From an uncultured Clostridia bacterium (GTDB lineage: Bacteria; Bacillota; Clostridia; TANB77; CAG-508), in NCBI GenBank assembly GCA_947628085.1, contig CANQYM010000017.1, positions 1 to 30,286 on the forward strand: a DNA stretch of 30,286 nt, given 5' to 3'. The notes beneath the pieces were generated by a model, which saw only the letters and a program-made list of their open reading frames with translations, was not told the DNA's origin and did not search any database. Below are positions 3,471-18,320 of the stretch, piece after piece. The position numbers were made by a program, and so were the translations under genes. Numbering within the stretch: position 1 is the stretch's first letter; each line of letters opens with the position of its first letter.

Positions 3471-4545
3471 ATGTACATAAAAAATATAGTTTTAAATAAT
3501 TTTAGAAATTACAGTAATCAAGAAATAGAACTTAATAAAAATATTAATATAATATATGGAAATAATGCTCAAGGAAAAACAAATATAGTAGAAGCAATAT
3601 TTTTATGTAGTTATCGGAAAGTCTTTTAGAGCAAAAAAAGATAAAGAATTAATAAAATTTAATGAAAAAAATTCAAAAATAAAAATAGAATATGAAAAAA
3701 AAGATAGAACAGGAAAAATAGAAGCCGAAATCGAAGATAAAAAAATATTTTTATTAAATGGAATAAGACAAAATAAAGTAAGTAATATTGTAGGAAATAT
3801 AAATGTTGTAATTTTTACACCAGACGATATTGAAATAATAAAAGATGGTCCACAAAAAAGAAGAAGATTTCTTGATATGATGATAAGTTCGTTAAAGCCA
3901 AATTATATACATTTACTTAATAATTATAATAAAATATTAGATCAAAGAAATAATTACTTAAGACAAATAAAATATGAAAATAAAGATAAAAATAATTTAG
4001 ATGTTTGGGATGAAAGCTTAGCAGAATATTCTTTTAAAATATATGAATATAGAAAAAATTATATAGAAAAATTTTCTGAAAAAATAGAAGATATCCACAA
4101 AACAATAACAAAAAGTGGAAAAGAAGAAATAAAAATAAAATATATAAGCAATAGTAAAGATAAAGAATCTTTTTTAGAAAATTTGAAAAAATCTAGAGAA
4201 ATAGATATATCTCGAGGATTTACAGCCACAGGAATACATAGAGATGATTTCATAATATATATAAACGGAAGACAAGTTTCTATTTTTGGTTCACAAGGAC
4301 AACAACGAACAGCAACTTTAACATTAAAATTATGCGAACTTCAGATAGTAAAAGAAGAAATTGGAGAAAATCCAATACTATTATTAGATGATTTTATGTC
4401 AGAACTTGATGAAGAAAGAAGAAAAAGTTTTTTAGAAAATATAGAAGAAAATCAAGTTATTATAACTTGTACAGATAAATTTGAATTAGAAAAGAACAGC
4501 TCAATATTTTTTGTAGAAAATGGTATTTGCAAAAAAGAGTGTTAA
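3471..4545 (+). pseudogene. recF: recF (DNA replication/repair protein RecF) disrupted by a single-base frame shift near 3615
   Basis: The frame from ATG 3471 gives MYIKNIVLNNFRNYSNQEIELNKNINIIYGNNAQGKTNIVEAIFLCSYRKVF and then TAG at 3627-3629. The +1 frame from 3616 continues GKSFRAKKDKELIKF...FTPDDIEIIKDGPQKRRRFLDMMISS without stops into the 3877..4545 ORF (SQGQQRT, LLLDDFMSELD). The total length is 1075 nt (3n+1). Confidence 0.85.
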
Positions 4546-6489
<1,944 letters not shown>

Positions 6490-9632: not shown

Positions 9633-10208
9633 ATAAAAAAAGAAAAAACAACTCAGGGCTGGCTACCATTTGATGAAGTTTTAGAAAACGGAATAATAAA
9701 GCAAAAAAATTCTTATATAAAAATTATAAAAGTAATTCCAATTAATTATGATTTAAAATCAAATTTAGAAAAAGAAGCTATTTTAAATTCTTATAAATTG
9801 TTTTTAAAAACATGCGATTTTAATGTTCAAATAATTATTCAAAGTAAAAAAGAAAATTTATCAAAATATTTTTTTAATCTTAAACAAATTTCCCAAAAAG
9901 AAGAAAACGAAAAAATAAAAGAAATAGCAAAAGAGTATATAGAGTTTATAAAAAATAAAAATGAAGAAAACAAATCAGCATCAAAAAATTTTTATATAGT
10001 TATTAAATATGATTTTGATTTATCCACAAAAAGTGCTCAAACTGTGGATGAAAACATTGCAATTAACTTTTTAAATGAAGGATTTTTTAAAATAAAAGAA
10101 ACTTTATCAAGATGTGGCAATACTGTATATGACATTAATGAAAAACAAGAAGTAGAAGAAATTTTAAATTCATTTTTTAATCAAAAAGGTGAAAAAAAGG
10201 AGGAATGA
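9633..10208 (+). CDS. N-terminal domain of a Gram-positive-type VirB4 (TcpF/PrgJ/Orf16-like) ATPase; no canonical start codon; out of frame with the ATPase domain
   Basis: The frame is open from the TAA at 9630-9632. It reads IKKEKTTQGWLPFDEVLENGIIKQKNSYIKIIKVIPINYDLKSNLEKEAILNSYKLFLKTCDFNVQIIIQSKK, which resembles VirB4 N-termini of Firmicute conjugation systems. A strong AAGGAGG (9617-9623) lies 9 nt before ATA 9633. The first ATG/GTG/TTG in frame is TTG 9798, inside the conserved region. Confidence 0.6.
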   Translation: MKKEKTTQGWLPFDEVLENGIIKQKNSYIKIIKVIPINYDLKSNLEKEAILNSYKLFLKTCDFNVQIIIQSKKENLSKYFFNLKQISQKEENEKIKEIAKEYIEFIKNKNEENKSASKNFYIVIKYDFDLSTKSAQTVDENIAINFLNEGFFKIKETLSRCGNTVYDINEKQEVEEILNSFFNQKGEKKEE

Positions 10209-11964
10209 TAATATAGAAAATTTTTATGATGGAATATTAAATATTAAAGATAAAATGGCACCAAGCTATATAAATAATAAAAATCCAAAATATTTAGAAA
10301 TTGACGGAACTTTTTATAGTGGAATATTAGTAATAGATTATTATAGAGAATATAATGATATTATTTTAAAAAATATTATAAACACAAATATAAATATGAA
10401 TATATCAATATTTTATGAAAAGCAAGATACATATAAAACAATTAAAGATTTAACATATTTTATTGGAAATGTTGGTGTTGATTTAAAATCTGGAAATGAA
10501 AATAGACAAGACATAGACATTGCAGCATATTCATATACAGATGCAAAATATATTAGAAAAGAAATGCAAGTAAATAATGAAGAATTATATTTTTTATATA
10601 CATATATATTAATAATTTCTGAAACAGAACAAGAAATGGAAAGAAATTTAAATAAAATAGAAGGCATTTTACAAGCATCTGGAATGATGACAAGAAAAGG
10701 GAATTTTAGACAAGAGCAAATTTATAATTCTTGTCTTCCTCTAATGGAAAATAATAAAGATATTAAAACTGTTACAAGAAGAAACATTTTAGGAAGTGGA
10801 CTTGTTTCAACATATCCATTTGTTTCATCAAATTTGTGTGATGAAAATGGAATTTTTATTGGAACTAATATTTATAATAATTCAATGATTTTAGTAGATA
10901 GATTTAACAAAGAAAAATATAAAAATGCAAATATGTGTATTTTTGGAACAAGCGGAGCAGGAAAATCTTTTTATACAAAATTATTAATTTTAAGATATAG
11001 GCTTCTTGGATTAGATCAATACATAATAGATCCAGAAAGAGAATATACAAAAATTTGTGAAAGTTTAGATGGAGTTTGTATTAAATTTGGTCCAACTTCT
11101 AATTCATATATAAATATTTTAGATATTAGAGAAGAGGAAATTGAAGAGGAAAAAGGTTTTTTAGTATCTAAACTAAGTAAATTAAGAATATTTTTTAGCT
11201 TAGTTTTTGGAGAATTAGATGAGGAAAATGTTGCACTTTTAGAAGAAAAATTAATAGAAGTTTATAAAGAAAAAGGAATAACTTTTGATGATAATTCTTT
11301 ATATAACGAAAATAAAGAATTTAAAAAAAGCTCACAAATGCCGATTTTACAAGATTTATATGAAATTTTAGGAAAAGATGAAAAAACATTATTTTTTAAA
11401 AGAAAGTTATATCCATTCATATATGGATCATTAAAATTTTTAAATAATTTTACAAACGTTGAACTTGAAAATAAATTAATTGTTGCAGATATATATGAAC
11501 TTGGAGAAGAAAATTTAAAATATGGAATGTATATTTTTACAGAGCTTTTTTGGGACAAGATAAAAAAAGATAGAAATAAAAATAAGGCTATTTATTTAGA
11601 TGAAATTTGGAGATTAATTGGTGTTACATCAAACAAGTTTGTAGCAAGTTTTATATATAAAATATTTAAAACAATTAGAAAATATGGAGGAAGTGCAGTT
11701 GCAATTACACAAGATGTTTCAGATTTATTTAGTTTGGAAGAGGGAACTTATGGTAAAAGTATTTTAAATAATTCTAGTATAAAATCTTTTTTCTCATTAG
11801 AAGAAGAAAATATTTTAGTTTTAGAAAAATATGCAAATATTTCTGAAAAAGAAAAAATAGAAATTAAATCTTTAAAAAGAGGTGAAGCACTTATGTTTAT
11901 TGGAGATAACCACATTTTATCTAAAGTAGAAGCATCTGAATATGAAAAGGAGTTGATAATTTGA
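10189..11964 (+). CDS. VirB4-like T4SS ATPase, central and C-terminal ATPase domains
   Basis: 591-aa ORF with Walker A FGTSGAGKS and Walker B AIYLDEIWRL, ending in ITQDVSD. It overlaps the upstream fragment across an A7 run (10192-10198). Confidence 0.85.
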   Translation: MKKRRNDNIENFYDGILNIKDKMAPSYINNKNPKYLEIDGTFYSGILVIDYYREYNDIILKNIINTNINMNISIFYEKQDTYKTIKDLTYFIGNVGVDLKSGNENRQDIDIAAYSYTDAKYIRKEMQVNNEELYFLYTYILIISETEQEMERNLNKIEGILQASGMMTRKGNFRQEQIYNSCLPLMENNKDIKTVTRRNILGSGLVSTYPFVSSNLCDENGIFIGTNIYNNSMILVDRFNKEKYKNANMCIFGTSGAGKSFYTKLLILRYRLLGLDQYIIDPEREYTKICESLDGVCIKFGPTSNSYINILDIREEEIEEEKGFLVSKLSKLRIFFSLVFGELDEENVALLEEKLIEVYKEKGITFDDNSLYNENKEFKKSSQMPILQDLYEILGKDEKTLFFKRKLYPFIYGSLKFLNNFTNVELENKLIVADIYELGEENLKYGMYIFTELFWDKIKKDRNKNKAIYLDEIWRLIGVTSNKFVASFIYKIFKTIRKYGGSAVAITQDVSDLFSLEEGTYGKSILNNSSIKSFFSLEEENILVLEKYANISEKEKIEIKSLKRGEALMFIGDNHILSKVEASEYEKELII

Positions 11965-13151
11965 AAATTATTACAGCAATGGGAGATCCTTATTTAAACA
12001 ATAAATTAAAAGAAAAATATGAAGTTATTGGAAAAGATATTTTTTATCAAGAAGGAATTTTAGAAATATTAACAGAAAGAAAAGATATCGATTTATTAGT
12101 TTTAAGTAATAATTTGCCTTTTGAATATAAATTTGAAGAATTAATTGAAAAAATAATTAAAGAAAAAGAAGAACTAGAAATAATAGTTTTTCTAAAAGAA
12201 AAAGATGAAAATATTGAAAACTACTTAAATAGCAAAAATATTTATAAAATATTTTATTTAAATGAAGAGGGATATAGAAATTTTTTTAATGTAATTAATT
12301 CAAATGAGAATAATCCTCAAAAAATACAAGATGAAATTAAGAATTTTAAAGAAATAATTTTAAATAATTCTAAGAAAAAAGGAATTAATTTAAAAAGCGA
12401 TTTTTTAAAGAATAAAATTGAAAATGAAGAAAAAAACAAACAAAATTCTAAAAAAGATGAAAAAGAAAATGAGCGAAATTTTGAAAATAGAGAAGAAAAT
12501 AAAAGTTCAAAAATAATAGTAGTTTCTGGAAATTCTGGTGCTGGAAAGACAATAGTATCAATTCTTTTATCGAAATATATAGAAAAGCAAAGCAAGAAAG
12601 TTTTATTAATAGATTTTGATTTAAAAAATAAATCAATTAATACAATATTAGGCGTAAAAACAAAGAAAAATACAGAAGAAAATATAAGTATTTTTAATAA
12701 AAACTTATATATTTTAAATGAAGCAAAAGAAATTTTAAATAGCTTTGAAATATATAAAATAAATATGTTTTTAGAAGAATTAAAAAATAAATTTGATTAT
12801 ATAATAATAGATTTTTCAAATGAATTAAATGAAGAATTAGAAAAAAGCGTACTTTTAAAGGCAAATAAAATTATTTTTTTATTAGAATCAAATTTATTAG
12901 AAATAAAAAAAGCTAAAAACTTTTTAGAAATTTATTTAGAGGATTATGGAATTGATTCTAATAAAATAAAAATAGTATTTAATAAAGCAAACAAATATAA
13001 AATTCCAGATTTTATATTAAAAGAAATTTTTTCTAATTTTGAAATAATAGGAAATATAGAATATGACGAAAAATATACGTTATTTATAAATAAAAATTTT
13101 AATAATATAAATTGTAAAGATGAATATAAAAAAATCTATGAAAAATTATAA
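11961..13151 (+). CDS. TadZ/CpaE-like protein: N-terminal receiver-like domain fused to a MinD/ParA-type ATPase
   Basis: TTG start 8 nt after AAGGAG, overlapping the VirB4 stop. The N-terminus (KIITAMGDPYLNNKLKEKYEVIGKDIFYQEGILEIL...DLLVLSNNLP) looks like a CheY-type fold, but I could not identify an acidic phosphoacceptor pocket. A K/E/N-rich linker follows, then IVVSGNSGAGKT (P-loop) and VLLIDFD. Confidence 0.7.
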   Translation: MKIITAMGDPYLNNKLKEKYEVIGKDIFYQEGILEILTERKDIDLLVLSNNLPFEYKFEELIEKIIKEKEELEIIVFLKEKDENIENYLNSKNIYKIFYLNEEGYRNFFNVINSNENNPQKIQDEIKNFKEIILNNSKKKGINLKSDFLKNKIENEEKNKQNSKKDEKENERNFENREENKSSKIIVVSGNSGAGKTIVSILLSKYIEKQSKKVLLIDFDLKNKSINTILGVKTKKNTEENISIFNKNLYILNEAKEILNSFEIYKINMFLEELKNKFDYIIIDFSNELNEELEKSVLLKANKIIFLLESNLLEIKKAKNFLEIYLEDYGIDSNKIKIVFNKANKYKIPDFILKEIFSNFEIIGNIEYDEKYTLFINKNFNNINCKDEYKKIYEKL

Positions 13152-13162
13152 AAGGAGGAATT

Positions 13163-13888
13163 ATGGTAGGTTTAGAAATAGAAAATAATATAGAAATGAA
13201 AAATAGTTTAGGAGATAAATTAAAAAATTTACAAGAAAATTTTATTGAATCTGATATTGGAAAAGCAATAAATTCAGCAATAGATATAGGATTAAAAGCT
13301 GTTCTTCCAGATTTGATAGAAGACCAAGTAATAGATGTGAAAAATGCAATATTAGAAAACGGATTTTCTGAAGGAATAAAAGAAGTAATAGATTCTGCTA
13401 TAAACACTGGAAAAAGTGCAATAGGAATTATAACAGGAAATTTTGAAAATGTATCACAAATACAATTAGCAGTAAAAAATGGTGGAATACTTGATAAAGT
13501 ATCCGATTTATTAGACTATACAATAGATTTTGCAAAAGAAAAGAATGTAATAGATAAAAATATAAGTTCTCTTATAAAAAATGGTAAAAATTCAATAATT
13601 AAATCTGTAGAAGAAAAAATTGAAGAAACTTTAACTAATCAAATAAAAGCTGTTGAAAAAGTTGAAAAGTACTGTAATAATTGGAATATTGGATACGCTT
13701 CTCAAGATATAACTGCGATGGACAAAGCATATAAGAACATTAAAAATAATTTAGAAAAAATAGTTCCAATAGAAAATATAATTAATAAAGCAAGAACGAT
13801 AGAAAATTTGCATAATTTAATTAAGAGTAATGGTAATAGTTTTGATTTAACTAAAGAAGAGGAAATGCTTGCGGAAAAATTAGCATAA
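13163..13888 (+). CDS. Hypothetical, predicted all-helical protein with an internal AINSAIDIG / VIDSAINTG repeat
   Basis: 241-aa ORF with an AAGGAGG RBS, 11 nt after the preceding gene, so it is probably co-transcribed with the VirB4/TadZ-like genes. I recognise no motif. Confidence 0.65.
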   Translation: MVGLEIENNIEMKNSLGDKLKNLQENFIESDIGKAINSAIDIGLKAVLPDLIEDQVIDVKNAILENGFSEGIKEVIDSAINTGKSAIGIITGNFENVSQIQLAVKNGGILDKVSDLLDYTIDFAKEKNVIDKNISSLIKNGKNSIIKSVEEKIEETLTNQIKAVEKVEKYCNNWNIGYASQDITAMDKAYKNIKNNLEKIVPIENIINKARTIENLHNLIKSNGNSFDLTKEEEMLAEKLA

Positions 13889-13955
13889 AATTTTTCTTCG
13901 AAAAATTTTTGCTTTCAAAAATTTCATTTTTTGAAAATAAAATTTATTTTCTTAT

Positions 13956-14135
13956 CTATAAACTGATACCATTATTAATATATGTTTTTTAATGTTTTGC
14001 TGTCGCAATTTTCTTAAAATAAAGCAAATAAATAAAATTAGAAACAAAATTGCTCCAATCGCCCTTCGCTTATGCTTTGGTTGGTCGCTGCGCATCATTT
14101 AAAAACATATATTAATAACGCTATCAGTTTTATAG
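13956..14135 (+). repeat. Structured intergenic repeat, copy 1 (diverged)
   Basis: Arms 13956-13990 and 14100-14135 pair over about 35 bp. The core 13991-14099 aligns with copies 2 and 3 (TGTCGCAAT...ATTGCTCCAATCGCCCTTCGCT.A.GCTT.GGTTGGTCGCT). Confidence 0.8.
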
Positions 14136-14220: not shown

Positions 14221-15438
14221 ATGGATATAGAGTATAATGTTAATGATGAAAATAGAAAAGTTTTAGAAGACGTATGCGAAAAATATGGATATTCAGAAGA
14301 ATTAAAAAGTGTTTTATCAAAAGTAATGCCAGCTATGTTAGAAGGAGCTACATATGAAGAAAGAACTCTTTTTTATAGTATGCTAAGAAAAACACCAATA
14401 GAAATTATTCCTGCTGAATCTACAATAACACGTTCAGAATTAAGCAAAAAGCATTTTGGAGAGATTAATCCACATATAATAGATGCAGAAACAGACATTG
14501 GTGAATACGGAAAAACAGAACCGGCAGGAAGTTTTGTTAGAGAAGCGGAATTAGATGATGATTTAAAAATAAAAGGTGTTAGGCAATATCTTTTTATAAG
14601 AGAATTAAGTGAGAAAAACGAAAAAAATAGAAGAGCAATAGATTTATTAGGAACCAAAATAAATGTTTCTCATTTAATACATGAATTAGGGCATGCATGG
14701 GTTTCAGAAAAAAACGGATATGAGTTAGATGATAATGGAATACTTACAGAACGAACAGGAACTTGTAAAATAAAATATCAAATAACACCTCTTGAAAATG
14801 GAAAATATGAGAGAAGAGAAATTTCTAGAACAGGATTAATGTTAGAAGAGTCATTAAACACAAATATGGAAGAAGAAAGTTTAGCTAGGTATTTAGGACT
14901 TTCTAGAGAAAAAACTAAATTATTATATAGAGCCTCAGGATGTTTAGAGAGTTCCTTATATCAAGGTCTAATGTCAGAAATGAGTGAAACATTAACAGAA
15001 AGAACCAAAGGAAGAAGTTTAAGAAGTTGGAGAATAGAGGGGAACGAAAAAGCCTTAGAAGAATTAAATTCCGTAATGATGAAAACAAATGAATATCAAA
15101 ATAGAGAAACGGGAAATGAATATTTTAAAGATAAGGCAGAAATTTTCGAAGAAAAAACTAGAGAAGGAGCGACAAACGAAAGACTTAAAAGATTTCTTCT
15201 TAGATGTAAAAAAGACTTTTTCCCTAACAAAAAAGATATGACACCAATGGAAATTATAGAAGCAACATTAAGACAATGTTATGATGTAAAAGTAAATCAA
15301 CTAACCTTTGATTTTTCTACAGAAGAAAAAATAGAAGAGTATCAAAAATTCGTACATTCAGTATTAGCAGACGGATATCTTTTAATAAAAGATACTGATG
15401 AATATTTAAAAAATAAAAGCCAAGATTTAAGTAAATAA
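14221..15438 (+). CDS. Hypothetical cytoplasmic protein with an HExxH zinc-metallopeptidase motif
   Basis: 405-aa ORF with HELGHAW followed by acidic EESLN/EEE that could supply a third ligand. There is no signal peptide. The sequence is visibly richer in R/G/T codons than its neighbours. Confidence 0.7.
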   Translation: MDIEYNVNDENRKVLEDVCEKYGYSEELKSVLSKVMPAMLEGATYEERTLFYSMLRKTPIEIIPAESTITRSELSKKHFGEINPHIIDAETDIGEYGKTEPAGSFVREAELDDDLKIKGVRQYLFIRELSEKNEKNRRAIDLLGTKINVSHLIHELGHAWVSEKNGYELDDNGILTERTGTCKIKYQITPLENGKYERREISRTGLMLEESLNTNMEEESLARYLGLSREKTKLLYRASGCLESSLYQGLMSEMSETLTERTKGRSLRSWRIEGNEKALEELNSVMMKTNEYQNRETGNEYFKDKAEIFEEKTREGATNERLKRFLLRCKKDFFPNKKDMTPMEIIEATLRQCYDVKVNQLTFDFSTEEKIEEYQKFVHSVLADGYLLIKDTDEYLKNKSQDLSK

Positions 15439-18005: not shown

Positions 18006-18019
18006 AATATTTCATTTAG

Positions 18020-18059
18020 AAATCTGAATTGAAGAATTTACTTCAATTCAGATTTTTTT
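18020..18059 (+). terminator. Strong rho-independent terminator after gyrA
   Basis: A 15-bp stem AAATCTGAATTGAAG (18020-18034) / CTTCAATTCAGATTT (18041-18055), followed by a T run. Confidence 0.75.
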
Positions 18060-18154: not shown

Positions 18155-18320
18155 ATAGAAGCACTTAATATATAAATAATTTTATTAGTGACTTGGTGTC
18201 GCAATCTCCTTTTTTTAAAATAAACAAAAGGAAGATTGCTCCAATCGCCCTTCGCTAACGCTTCGGTTGGTCGCTTACGCGTCACTTATAAAATTATTTA
18301 TATATATTAAGTACTTCTAT
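18155..18320 (+). repeat. Structured intergenic repeat, copy 2
   Basis: Arms 18155-18185 and 18288-18320 pair over about 30 bp. The core 18187-18286 is nearly identical to the reverse complement of 21629-21730. Confidence 0.85.

Follow-up and report, generated by a model that had tools for sequence, protein, structure and literature searches.

Small palindromic repeats are common in bacteria, but there are very few families for which their movement and the upkeep of pairing in their stems have been worked out. BIME-1 (RIP) elements of enterobacteria consist of two inverted REPs around an asymmetric central motif with an IHF site, and PATEs, which are derived from IS200/IS605, insert 3' of a fixed tetra- or pentanucleotide and have distinct subterminal hairpins at their ends. 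REPINs are REP doublets that form hairpins and are mobilised by RAYT transposases; compensatory changes and tandem clusters that include the flanks have been described for them (Bertels and Rainey 2011, PMC3116915).

The repeat described here is found in three copies of ~165 bp, each in an intergenic spacer of the window, i.e., the whole stretch of 30,286 nt that was analysed. Like BIME-1, it has inverted arms around an asymmetric conserved centre, is intergenic and follows no orientation rule; however, the BIME centre is a double-stranded protein-binding site without covarying helices and the BIME arms are conserved REPs, the opposite of what is seen here. Integron attC sites resemble it in being defined by a folded single strand, with halves that covary and with conserved unpaired positions. 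The attC sites, however, have conserved R''/R' (GTTRRRY) boxes at the stem base and a variable tip, and lie next to intI in arrays of the same orientation, whereas here the tip is conserved, the stem bases are not, and copies are scattered singly in either orientation. In contrast to PATEs, there is no fixed boundary base and there is one long hairpin instead of two subterminal ones.

The likeness to REPINs includes the extragenic position, tens of copies per genome, a size of about 100-170 nt, a long hairpin in ssDNA or RNA, common compensatory changes, the absence of a target-site duplication, and tandem arrays in which element and flank are repeated as one unit (three units with a 161-nt period at locus L009 and three units at L016). 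However, the conserved parts of a REPIN are its two inverted terminal REPs and its middle is variable, whereas the present repeat has variable ends and one conserved, asymmetric folded core; a REP-like GTAG motif is absent. The bcr1 repeat of the Bacillus cereus group is close in size (about 155 bp), is likewise an intergenic repeat of Firmicutes with a patchy distribution between related strains, retains its structure through compensatory changes and has some decaying copies, but it is bounded by 5-bp direct repeats that have no counterpart here, is unrelated in sequence, and is known to be transcribed (PMC3184786). Classical MITEs such as ERIC, Correia/NEMIS and RUP (in part, PMC3184786) are also small, non-coding, multi-copy and intergenic, form RNA stem-loops and often lie at the 3' ends of genes, and filled and empty orthologous sites are a further MITE-type trait of the present repeat. 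Unlike here, the terminal inverted repeats of MITEs are conserved and match a parent IS, and target-site duplications accompany them. No parent IS was seen for the arms, which are not the conserved inverted repeats of any known MITE, a possibility that the initial annotation of this locus had raised. The best-supported description is of a new family of interspersed hairpin repeats with a distinctive layout, a variable stem with a conserved, asymmetric, internally folded cap, from which the classical defining marks are absent.

The window copies and the distribution of the family

The window has a G+C content of ~24% and, judging from dnaA, dnaN, recF and gyrB at its start, is chromosomal DNA near the replication origin. 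Across all 30 kb of the window, no inverted repeats other than the arms of copies 1-3 (Table 1) are at least 25 nt long, at least 90% complementary and within 160 nt of each other. Measured against shuffled sequences, the whole element of copy 1 has a folding z-score of -5.8 when treated as RNA; for copy 3, treated as DNA, the scores of its two strands are -9.6 and -9.75. A stop-free reading frame spans copy 3, and Logan strain contigs around this copy break within the repeat.

All coordinates and substitutions listed in the initial annotation were correct on re-check. The closing helix of copy 1 differs from AGTGAC/GTCACT of copies 2 and 3 by two double substitutions and one T.T mismatch, and its inner hairpin has a T-A pair in place of the C-G pair of the other copies, in which the two strands read GCAATCTT/AAGATTGC. 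Copy 1 represents a subfamily with a long P2 loop and with CGCTGCGC instead of CGCTTACGC; its P2 strands correspond to columns 65-73 and 114-122 of alignment A2 (see below), and its P3 contains a covarying C-G/A-U pair.

Table 1. Positions of the repeat copies and of their parts in the window
Feature	Position	Strand	Remarks
Copy 1, whole element	13956..14135	+	diverged subfamily, partly decayed; compared with strain L068
Copy 1, left outer arm	13956..13990	+	partner is 14100-14135; 35 nt, 91% complementary
Copy 1, right outer arm	14100..14135	+	partner of left arm 13956-13990
Copy 1, closing helix P1, 5' strand AATGTT	13991..13996	+	partner ATCATT at 14094-14099; one T.T mismatch
Copy 1, hairpin P2	14005..14053	+	GCAATTTT (14005-14012) with AAAATTGC (14046-14053); AT-rich loop between
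Copy 1, invariant segment TTGCTCCAATCGC	14050..14062	+	same in 43/43 aligned copies
Copy 1, hairpin P3	14058..14085	+	14058-14064 with 14079-14085; two conserved G.U(T) wobble pairs
Copy 2, whole element	18155..18320	+	compared with strain L068
Copy 2, P1	18188-18192 with 18281-18285	+	GTGAC with GTCAC
Copy 2, core	18193-18280	+	invariant 13-mer at 18236-18248
Copy 3, whole element	21597..21761	-	read on minus strand; orthologues in L007, L009
Copy 3, P1	21729-21725 with 21634-21630	-	core 21724-21635

The family comprises at least 55 non-redundant copies in MAGs of related low-GC Clostridia and in metagenomes, with ~30 copies in one MAG, and the element is 140-185 nt long across the family. 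A scan of a genome collection with a conserved 20-mer returned 26 loci, most of them in a rabbit-gut MAG labelled 'uncultured Clostridia' (Lapin-005 bin45, hereafter bin45) and the rest in four further MAGs; the query was the C-variant of the 20-mer only, so the scan passed over genomes with the A-variant and gives too narrow a taxonomic spread. A core HMM recovered 41 copies from these 26 loci and the window. In a pattern scan of metagenomes, real and much more divergent copies were found at 15 of 35 loci, on contigs with 26-32% G+C; the other 20 loci lie on GC-rich contigs and were discarded as chance matches (16 without a core-HMM match and four matching the 20-mer alone). The window and bin45 are 97% identical over 6 kb and thus represent close relatives, and the element recurs in independent assemblies from several studies.

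Rfam covariance models gave no match over the window element, either at the gathering score or at E <= 10, and no relevant match in 18 related loci. ARAGORN predicted no tRNA in the element, BLAST against plasmids and phages and a pattern scan of IMG/VR gave no match, and a full-text literature search for the core sequence returned unrelated primer matches only. The repeat is an undescribed family, and its carriers are a clade of uncultured gut Clostridia with very AT-rich DNA.

Every copy is intergenic, and the neighbours are unrelated housekeeping genes (such as gyrA, topA, der, murA-like genes, ABC transporters and P-type ATPases); no recurrent neighbour gene family or transposase was found near the copies. 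The copies tend to lie nearer to the end of the preceding gene than to the start of the following one, commonly 3-96 nt past the stop codon. There is no bias of orientation relative to genes (18 sense and 10 antisense copies between co-directional genes, eight between convergent and six between divergent genes) or relative to local strand skew (24 versus 17). Copy 1 and copy 2 both lie upstream of a strong promoter-like site; for copy 2, this site follows immediately, and gyrA's own 17-bp terminator with a U7 tail lies upstream of the element. An intrinsic terminator was considered as the function of the repeat and rejected, given this separate gyrA terminator and the lack of U-tract enrichment: the mean number of T in the 10 nt after the stem is 4.3 (plus strand) and 3.6 (minus strand), close to background, and at least six T follow the stem in only nine (plus) and seven (minus) of 43 copies.

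Anatomy and covariation of the hairpin

From the outside inward, the element consists of AT-rich outer arms of 28-40 nt (18% G+C); then, 6-9 nt before the core, an irregular zone that is unpaired in ~3/4 of copies; and a closing helix P1 of 5 bp, paired in 41-43 of 43 copies. Inside P1 are the linker TTGGTGTC and three hairpins: P2 (GCAATC.../...GATTGC), with a tip that ranges from 3 nt to ~45 nt; P3 (AUCG.CC/GG.UGGU), with two wobble pairs; and P4, a small hairpin of variable length that is enlarged at loci L024, L027 and L054. The core is ~90 nt long with 57% GC, compared to 24% in the genome, and includes the invariant segment; its 47-nt 3' part (57% G+C) is 92% identical between bin45-type copies. 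In the folded core of one strand, P2, P3 and P4 meet in a three- or four-way junction; this fold belongs to that strand only, because the P3 wobbles turn into A.C mismatches on the opposite strand. The cap is nearly invariant across genomes in which housekeeping genes are only 70-80% identical. The 22-nt stretch ATTGCTCCAATCGCCCTTCGCT, which the initial annotation described as single-stranded-looking and unchanged, is indeed identical in all three window copies but is partly helical, since P2 has its 3' strand and P3 its 5' strand there. A coding role of the element was rejected: P2 loop lengths differ by non-multiples of three, and variation tracks base pairing.

The fold of the core and arms is supported by covariation. 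Counted on the MAFFT alignment A2 of 43 copies, 88.6% of cells are paired, compared to 71.4% after shuffling of partners (none of 500 shuffles reached 88.6%) and to 37-48% when partners were slid by 1-3 columns. Changes on both sides of a pair were found in 318 cells, compared to 108 in the shuffles, and double changes are present in 33 of 46 pairs; it should be noted that these cells come from paralogues, so that the counts are not independent events and the shuffle control ignores relatedness, a weakness from which the slid-partner control and the direct comparisons of orthologues are free. Covariation is seen in P1, P2, P3 and the arms, and the four top mutual-information column pairs in the core fall in P1 (two), P2 (one) and P3 (one). 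The top pair in P2 is T-A or C-G (31:12, none broken) and that in P3 is C-G or A-U (31:11, one broken). The register of P3 with wobbles is 98.8% paired, with 11 double and six one-sided consistent changes; one of the wobbles never varies, whereas at the other 37 copies have U.G and six have U-A. This covariation-supported register was preferred to the MFE register, CCAAUCG/CGGUUGG, which is broken in 17 cells.

The outer arms are specific to each copy and yet complementary to each other, as had been noted for the three window copies, and this is true across the family. Over the 1435 aligned arm positions of 45 copies, there are 58 mismatches and 19 gap columns, and the arms within a copy are 94.6% complementary; the arm mismatches of the wobble type (G.U) show no strand preference (nine plus versus 16 minus). 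Between bin45-type copies, in contrast, arm identity is 0.677, compared to 0.674 for shuffled arms. Thus, the long helix is under some constraint, in line with one of the two possibilities raised in the initial annotation, in that pairing is kept and sequence is not. The arms nevertheless share ancestry, because 12.8% of arm pairs score above the 99th percentile of the shuffled distribution, a 13-fold enrichment. By arm similarity, 22 of 29 copies join into a single cluster, and about half of the copies in bin45, the richest MAG, have the same outer end, (T)TCTTATAG, which lies at a constant distance from the core.

Boundaries and change in orthologous copies

Two copies on one contig, L012 and L021, are ~96% identical over the complete hairpin, including the outermost AAGCTCTTAAG; their similarity drops to background exactly at the stem base, and their flanks differ. 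Three comparisons of orthologous sites (L019/L034, L021/L041 and L041/L035), between genomes that are only 75-79% identical, pair a filled site with an element-free genome in which the genes are separated by a spacer of 0-40 nt without a palindrome; near-identical strains showed no recent insertion polymorphism. An arm HMM run over ~0.3 Mb found no core-less palindromes, and its one solo arm fragment abuts its own element. The flanks of 41 copies contain no direct target-site duplication and no conserved boundary bases. Whole units are therefore present or absent between related genomes, and the arms travel with the core, the recurring unit being the whole hairpin, which ends at the stem base. 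The sharing between L012 and L021, the empty sites and the lack of core-less arms together place the arms within the element, and insertion into the middle of palindromes already in place, as the initial annotation suggested, is unsupported; the empty palindromic sites it proposed to look for, with arms joined and the core absent, were found neither at the three orthologous empty sites nor by the arm HMM.

The orthologous copies L043 and L053 are 87% identical over 2.4 kb and lie next to the same M23 peptidase gene. Between them, there are four mirrored changes in the arms and P1 and one in the P2 tip; the unmirrored changes are a single one in the irregular zone and one in a loop, and the conserved core is otherwise identical. 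The non-coding flank is ~16% diverged (counted from the alignment), and about nine one-sided and fewer than one complementary two-sided changes would be expected in 33 pairs under independent mutation. Therefore, the arms change at an approximately neutral per-site rate but in a coupled fashion. Similarly, copy 3 of the window and its L009 orthologue (88% identical) are distinguished by a mirrored A>G/T>C change, a mirrored 1-nt indel and three unmirrored changes.

The sister strain L068, whose GyrA protein is identical to that of the window, has in its copy 1 a perfect closing helix, AATGA/TCATT, and the consensus TTACGCTTCGG where the window copy has uncompensated changes, i.e., the T.T mismatch in P1 and two C>T substitutions; the left arms of copy 1 in the two strains differ by ACCA against AGTG. 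These uncompensated changes have accumulated at a rate about equal to that of the flanks, and copy 1 is partly decaying. In copy 2, three substitutions within 19 nt distinguish the window from L068, the rest of the core being identical, and they flip both members of the covarying P3 pair (C...G to A...T).

Clustered multi-base changes and coupled changes at a near-neutral rate point to templated events, which in the core may be conversion between copies and in the arms hairpin-templated correction. Template switching between the arms of inverted repeats is documented (PMC7202029), and besides making the arms alike it can turn the spacer into the opposite orientation (PMC8604942). That selection acts too is shown by the conserved core and by the zone beside P1 that is recurrently unpaired. 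Accordingly, selection on the long helix, as initially suggested, is one way to maintain the constraint on pairing but not the sole one, and hairpin-templated correction fits at least as well.

Candidate explanations and significance

Whether the repeats are a family of small non-coding interspersed palindromic elements of the REPIN/BIME/bcr1/MITE class that is recognised in single-stranded form is, in our judgement, an evenly balanced question, and we favour this explanation. The element would be handled as a folded single strand, either ssDNA or RNA; a trans-acting factor may read the invariant junction segment, with the stems serving as a scaffold only. Complementarity of the arms would be kept mainly by hairpin-templated correction, through template switching within a strand or conversion of one arm by the other, and in addition by selection against unpaired states, and the cores may be kept alike within a genome by conversion between copies, by purifying selection, or by both. 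Several observations count against this explanation. No transposase, RAYT or candidate enzyme was found in ~0.39 Mb of partly redundant sequence searched with approximate probes; for example, tblastn of two Y1 transposase probes of approximate sequence against 385 kb of loci, some of them redundant, returned no hit with an E-value under 0.38. The core with 57% GC is kept in a 24% GC genome, with zero core changes at 87% identity, and the persistence of the core looks like purifying selection on each copy, for which an RNA of use to the host would account no less well. Pure homogenisation of the arms would not be expected to leave a zone that is unpaired time and again 6-9 nt from the core. A more specific proposal, which we regard as unlikely, is a structure-defined mobile hairpin whose ends are set where pairing stops: an enzyme would recognise the cap with its four-way junction on the single strand, or the cap would itself be a functional RNA motif, present in many copies and carried along by a hairpin of this kind, and the arms would evolve by obligatory mirrored substitution at an approximately neutral rate.

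The main rival is a multi-copy structured ncRNA with a host function, in which a rod-like stem carries the three- or four-way junction cap, acting either as an independent sRNA or as a cis element that shapes mRNA 3' ends, processing or stability; ERIC and Correia elements, which are substrates of RNase III or RNase E, provide a model for the cis-acting version. Such a function, which we consider rather unlikely, would be consistent with the conservation of the fold on one strand only, including two near-invariant G.U pairs (one of them A-U in six copies), with variable lengths of the P2 and P4 tips, which are typical of RNA families, with a core that is invariant between orthologues while the flanks diverge and that stays GC-rich in so AT-rich a genome, and with the position of the copies shortly downstream of stop codons. 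The unbiased orientation relative to genes and strand skew, however, is not expected of it, nor is the absence of a U-tract on either strand or of an Rfam family match; copy 2, behind the gyrA terminator and ahead of a promoter-like site, need not be in an mRNA at all, and copy 1 gains uncompensated changes between strains about as fast as the flanks do.

If a short mobile core inserted into the loops of palindromes already in place (terminators, for instance, or a different hairpin repeat), the outer arms would be target-derived, in keeping with the differences in the outermost 10-13 bp among the three window copies, with between-copy arm similarity that averages the shuffled level, and with the terminator-like positions of the elements. 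Such insertion is nonetheless very improbable, given that L012 and L021 share their arms to the last paired base within different flanks, that genes are adjacent without a palindrome at the three orthologous empty sites, that core-less palindromes with arm-like sequence were not found, and that a common terminus at a fixed distance from the core and the excess of high-scoring arm pairs link the arms of different copies; in addition, the real terminator of gyrA is separate from copy 2. We assign a similarly low probability to an inverton, in which the arms would be recombination sites, their identity a by-product of recombination, and the asymmetric core a segment that flips a promoter or another signal. 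An asymmetric segment between inverted repeats of 30-40 bp, unbiased orientation and the strong promoter-like sites that adjoin copies 1 and 2 would fit such a switch, but these sites are outside the element and not in the invertible part, the arms differ between copies so that a single site-specific invertase could not recognise them, and the covariation of P2 and P3 would be useless to a double-stranded switch. The elements downstream of the orthologous topA gene at L020 and L024 are oppositely oriented, as an inverton would predict; however, their arms are unrelated, so that independent insertion explains the opposite orientation, and at other orthologous loci (the window, L007 and L009; L043 and L053; consensus assemblies) the orientation is the same. 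Finally, AT-rich DNA yields many weak inverted repeats (1535 pairs), but an origin by chance or as an assembly artefact is negligible in view of the restriction of long, nearby, highly complementary arms to three window loci, the folding z-scores of -5.8 to -9.75, and the presence of the element in independent assemblies of several studies.

The family cleanly separates two constraints, with a stem that is free in sequence but ~95% paired and a cap that is nearly invariant. Mirrored near-neutral substitutions with almost no one-sided ones make it a test case for templated arm correction versus compensatory selection. The invariant 13-mer and the covarying junction can serve as bait for a partner protein, and also as a covariance-model seed for annotating these repeats, repeats that break short-read assemblies of poorly known gut Clostridia. 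If the repeat is indeed a structure-defined mobile hairpin, or a hairpin with a functional RNA motif as its cap, the family would offer a natural system in which hairpin-templated correction could be measured against compensatory selection.

Turnover of terminator stems

The gyrA gene ends in a canonical terminator, and at the equivalent site in the sister strain (L068), whose GyrA protein is identical to that of the window, we found a stem that differs in sequence yet is again perfectly paired. Thus ordinary terminator stems of the window genome, like the stems of the hairpin element, change in sequence and yet remain paired.

Coordinates of the features discussed (in the window unless a locus is named)
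Feature	Position	Properties
gyrA terminator	18018-18057	perfect 17-bp stem, then U7; z = -6.3
Equivalent site, L068	5452-5484	
CAAAAATTTTATTTTTCCAAAA unit	13915-13950	~1 occurrence
CAAAAATTTTATTTTTCCAAAA unit, L068	1243-1386	~6.7 tandem copies
Array, L009	2411-2886	161-nt period, x3
Array, L016	~4513-4947	period ~118 nt, x3
Element pair, L003	6689-6822, 6880-7039	58 nt between copies
Solo arm fragment, L005	5848-5874	
ParA-like ORF	11961-13151	
Inverted repeat	12863-12891 / 12952-12980	29-nt arms, 86% complementary, 60 nt apart
Type IV secretion/conjugation-like set	10189-13151, 23027-24364	TraG P-loop/VirB4-like, ParA/CpaE-like, VirD4/TrwB-like coupling protein
ORFs with no Pfam match	9798-10208, 13163-13888, 14221-15438, 21231-21539, 21814-22689, 22708-23037	near the ATPase-like genes
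Synteny break	~19026	
Second palindromic element, L035	~5640-5810	core ~70 nt

Arrays, pairs and fragments of the element

Tandem arrays comprising the element and part of its flank occur in two loci from related genomes, L009, where the array is orthologous to window copy 3, and L016, where P2 is cut down to GCAATC-AAA-GATTGC and other sequence takes the place of the core's 3' end. In another such locus (L003), two copies of different subfamilies stand head to head, and in L005 a solo arm fragment abuts a complete element. Immediately upstream of copy 1 lies the 22-nt AT-rich unit CAAAAATTTTATTTTTCCAAAA, which has grown into a tandem array in the sister strain. The hairpin element breaks up assemblies of these genomes: two short-read Logan contigs (L071, L072) terminate ~110 nt past the gene adjoining copy 3, that is, within the repeat.

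Gene neighborhood

Genes resembling type IV secretion/conjugation ATPases are located less than 25 kb from dnaA, amid replication genes, and the ParA-like ORF contains an inverted repeat. A synteny break separates the CxxCxxCC gene from the dnaC/dnaI-like gene: on its right side the rabbit-gut MAG bin45 (L007) is 97% identical to the window, but on its left side the two are unrelated. In the sister strain, the neighbor downstream of the CxxCxxCC gene instead encodes a 1677-aa DEAD/ResIII helicase.

A second palindromic element

Locus L035 carries another palindromic element, unrelated to the hairpin repeat family and with no match in Rfam, that is built on the same plan: its AT-rich arms, GC-rich at their ends (GCCCAA...GGGG...TTATATATTTTATTTTT and its complement), enclose a GC-rich core. 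The shared plan suggests that these genomes may harbor several families of conserved-cap hairpins.
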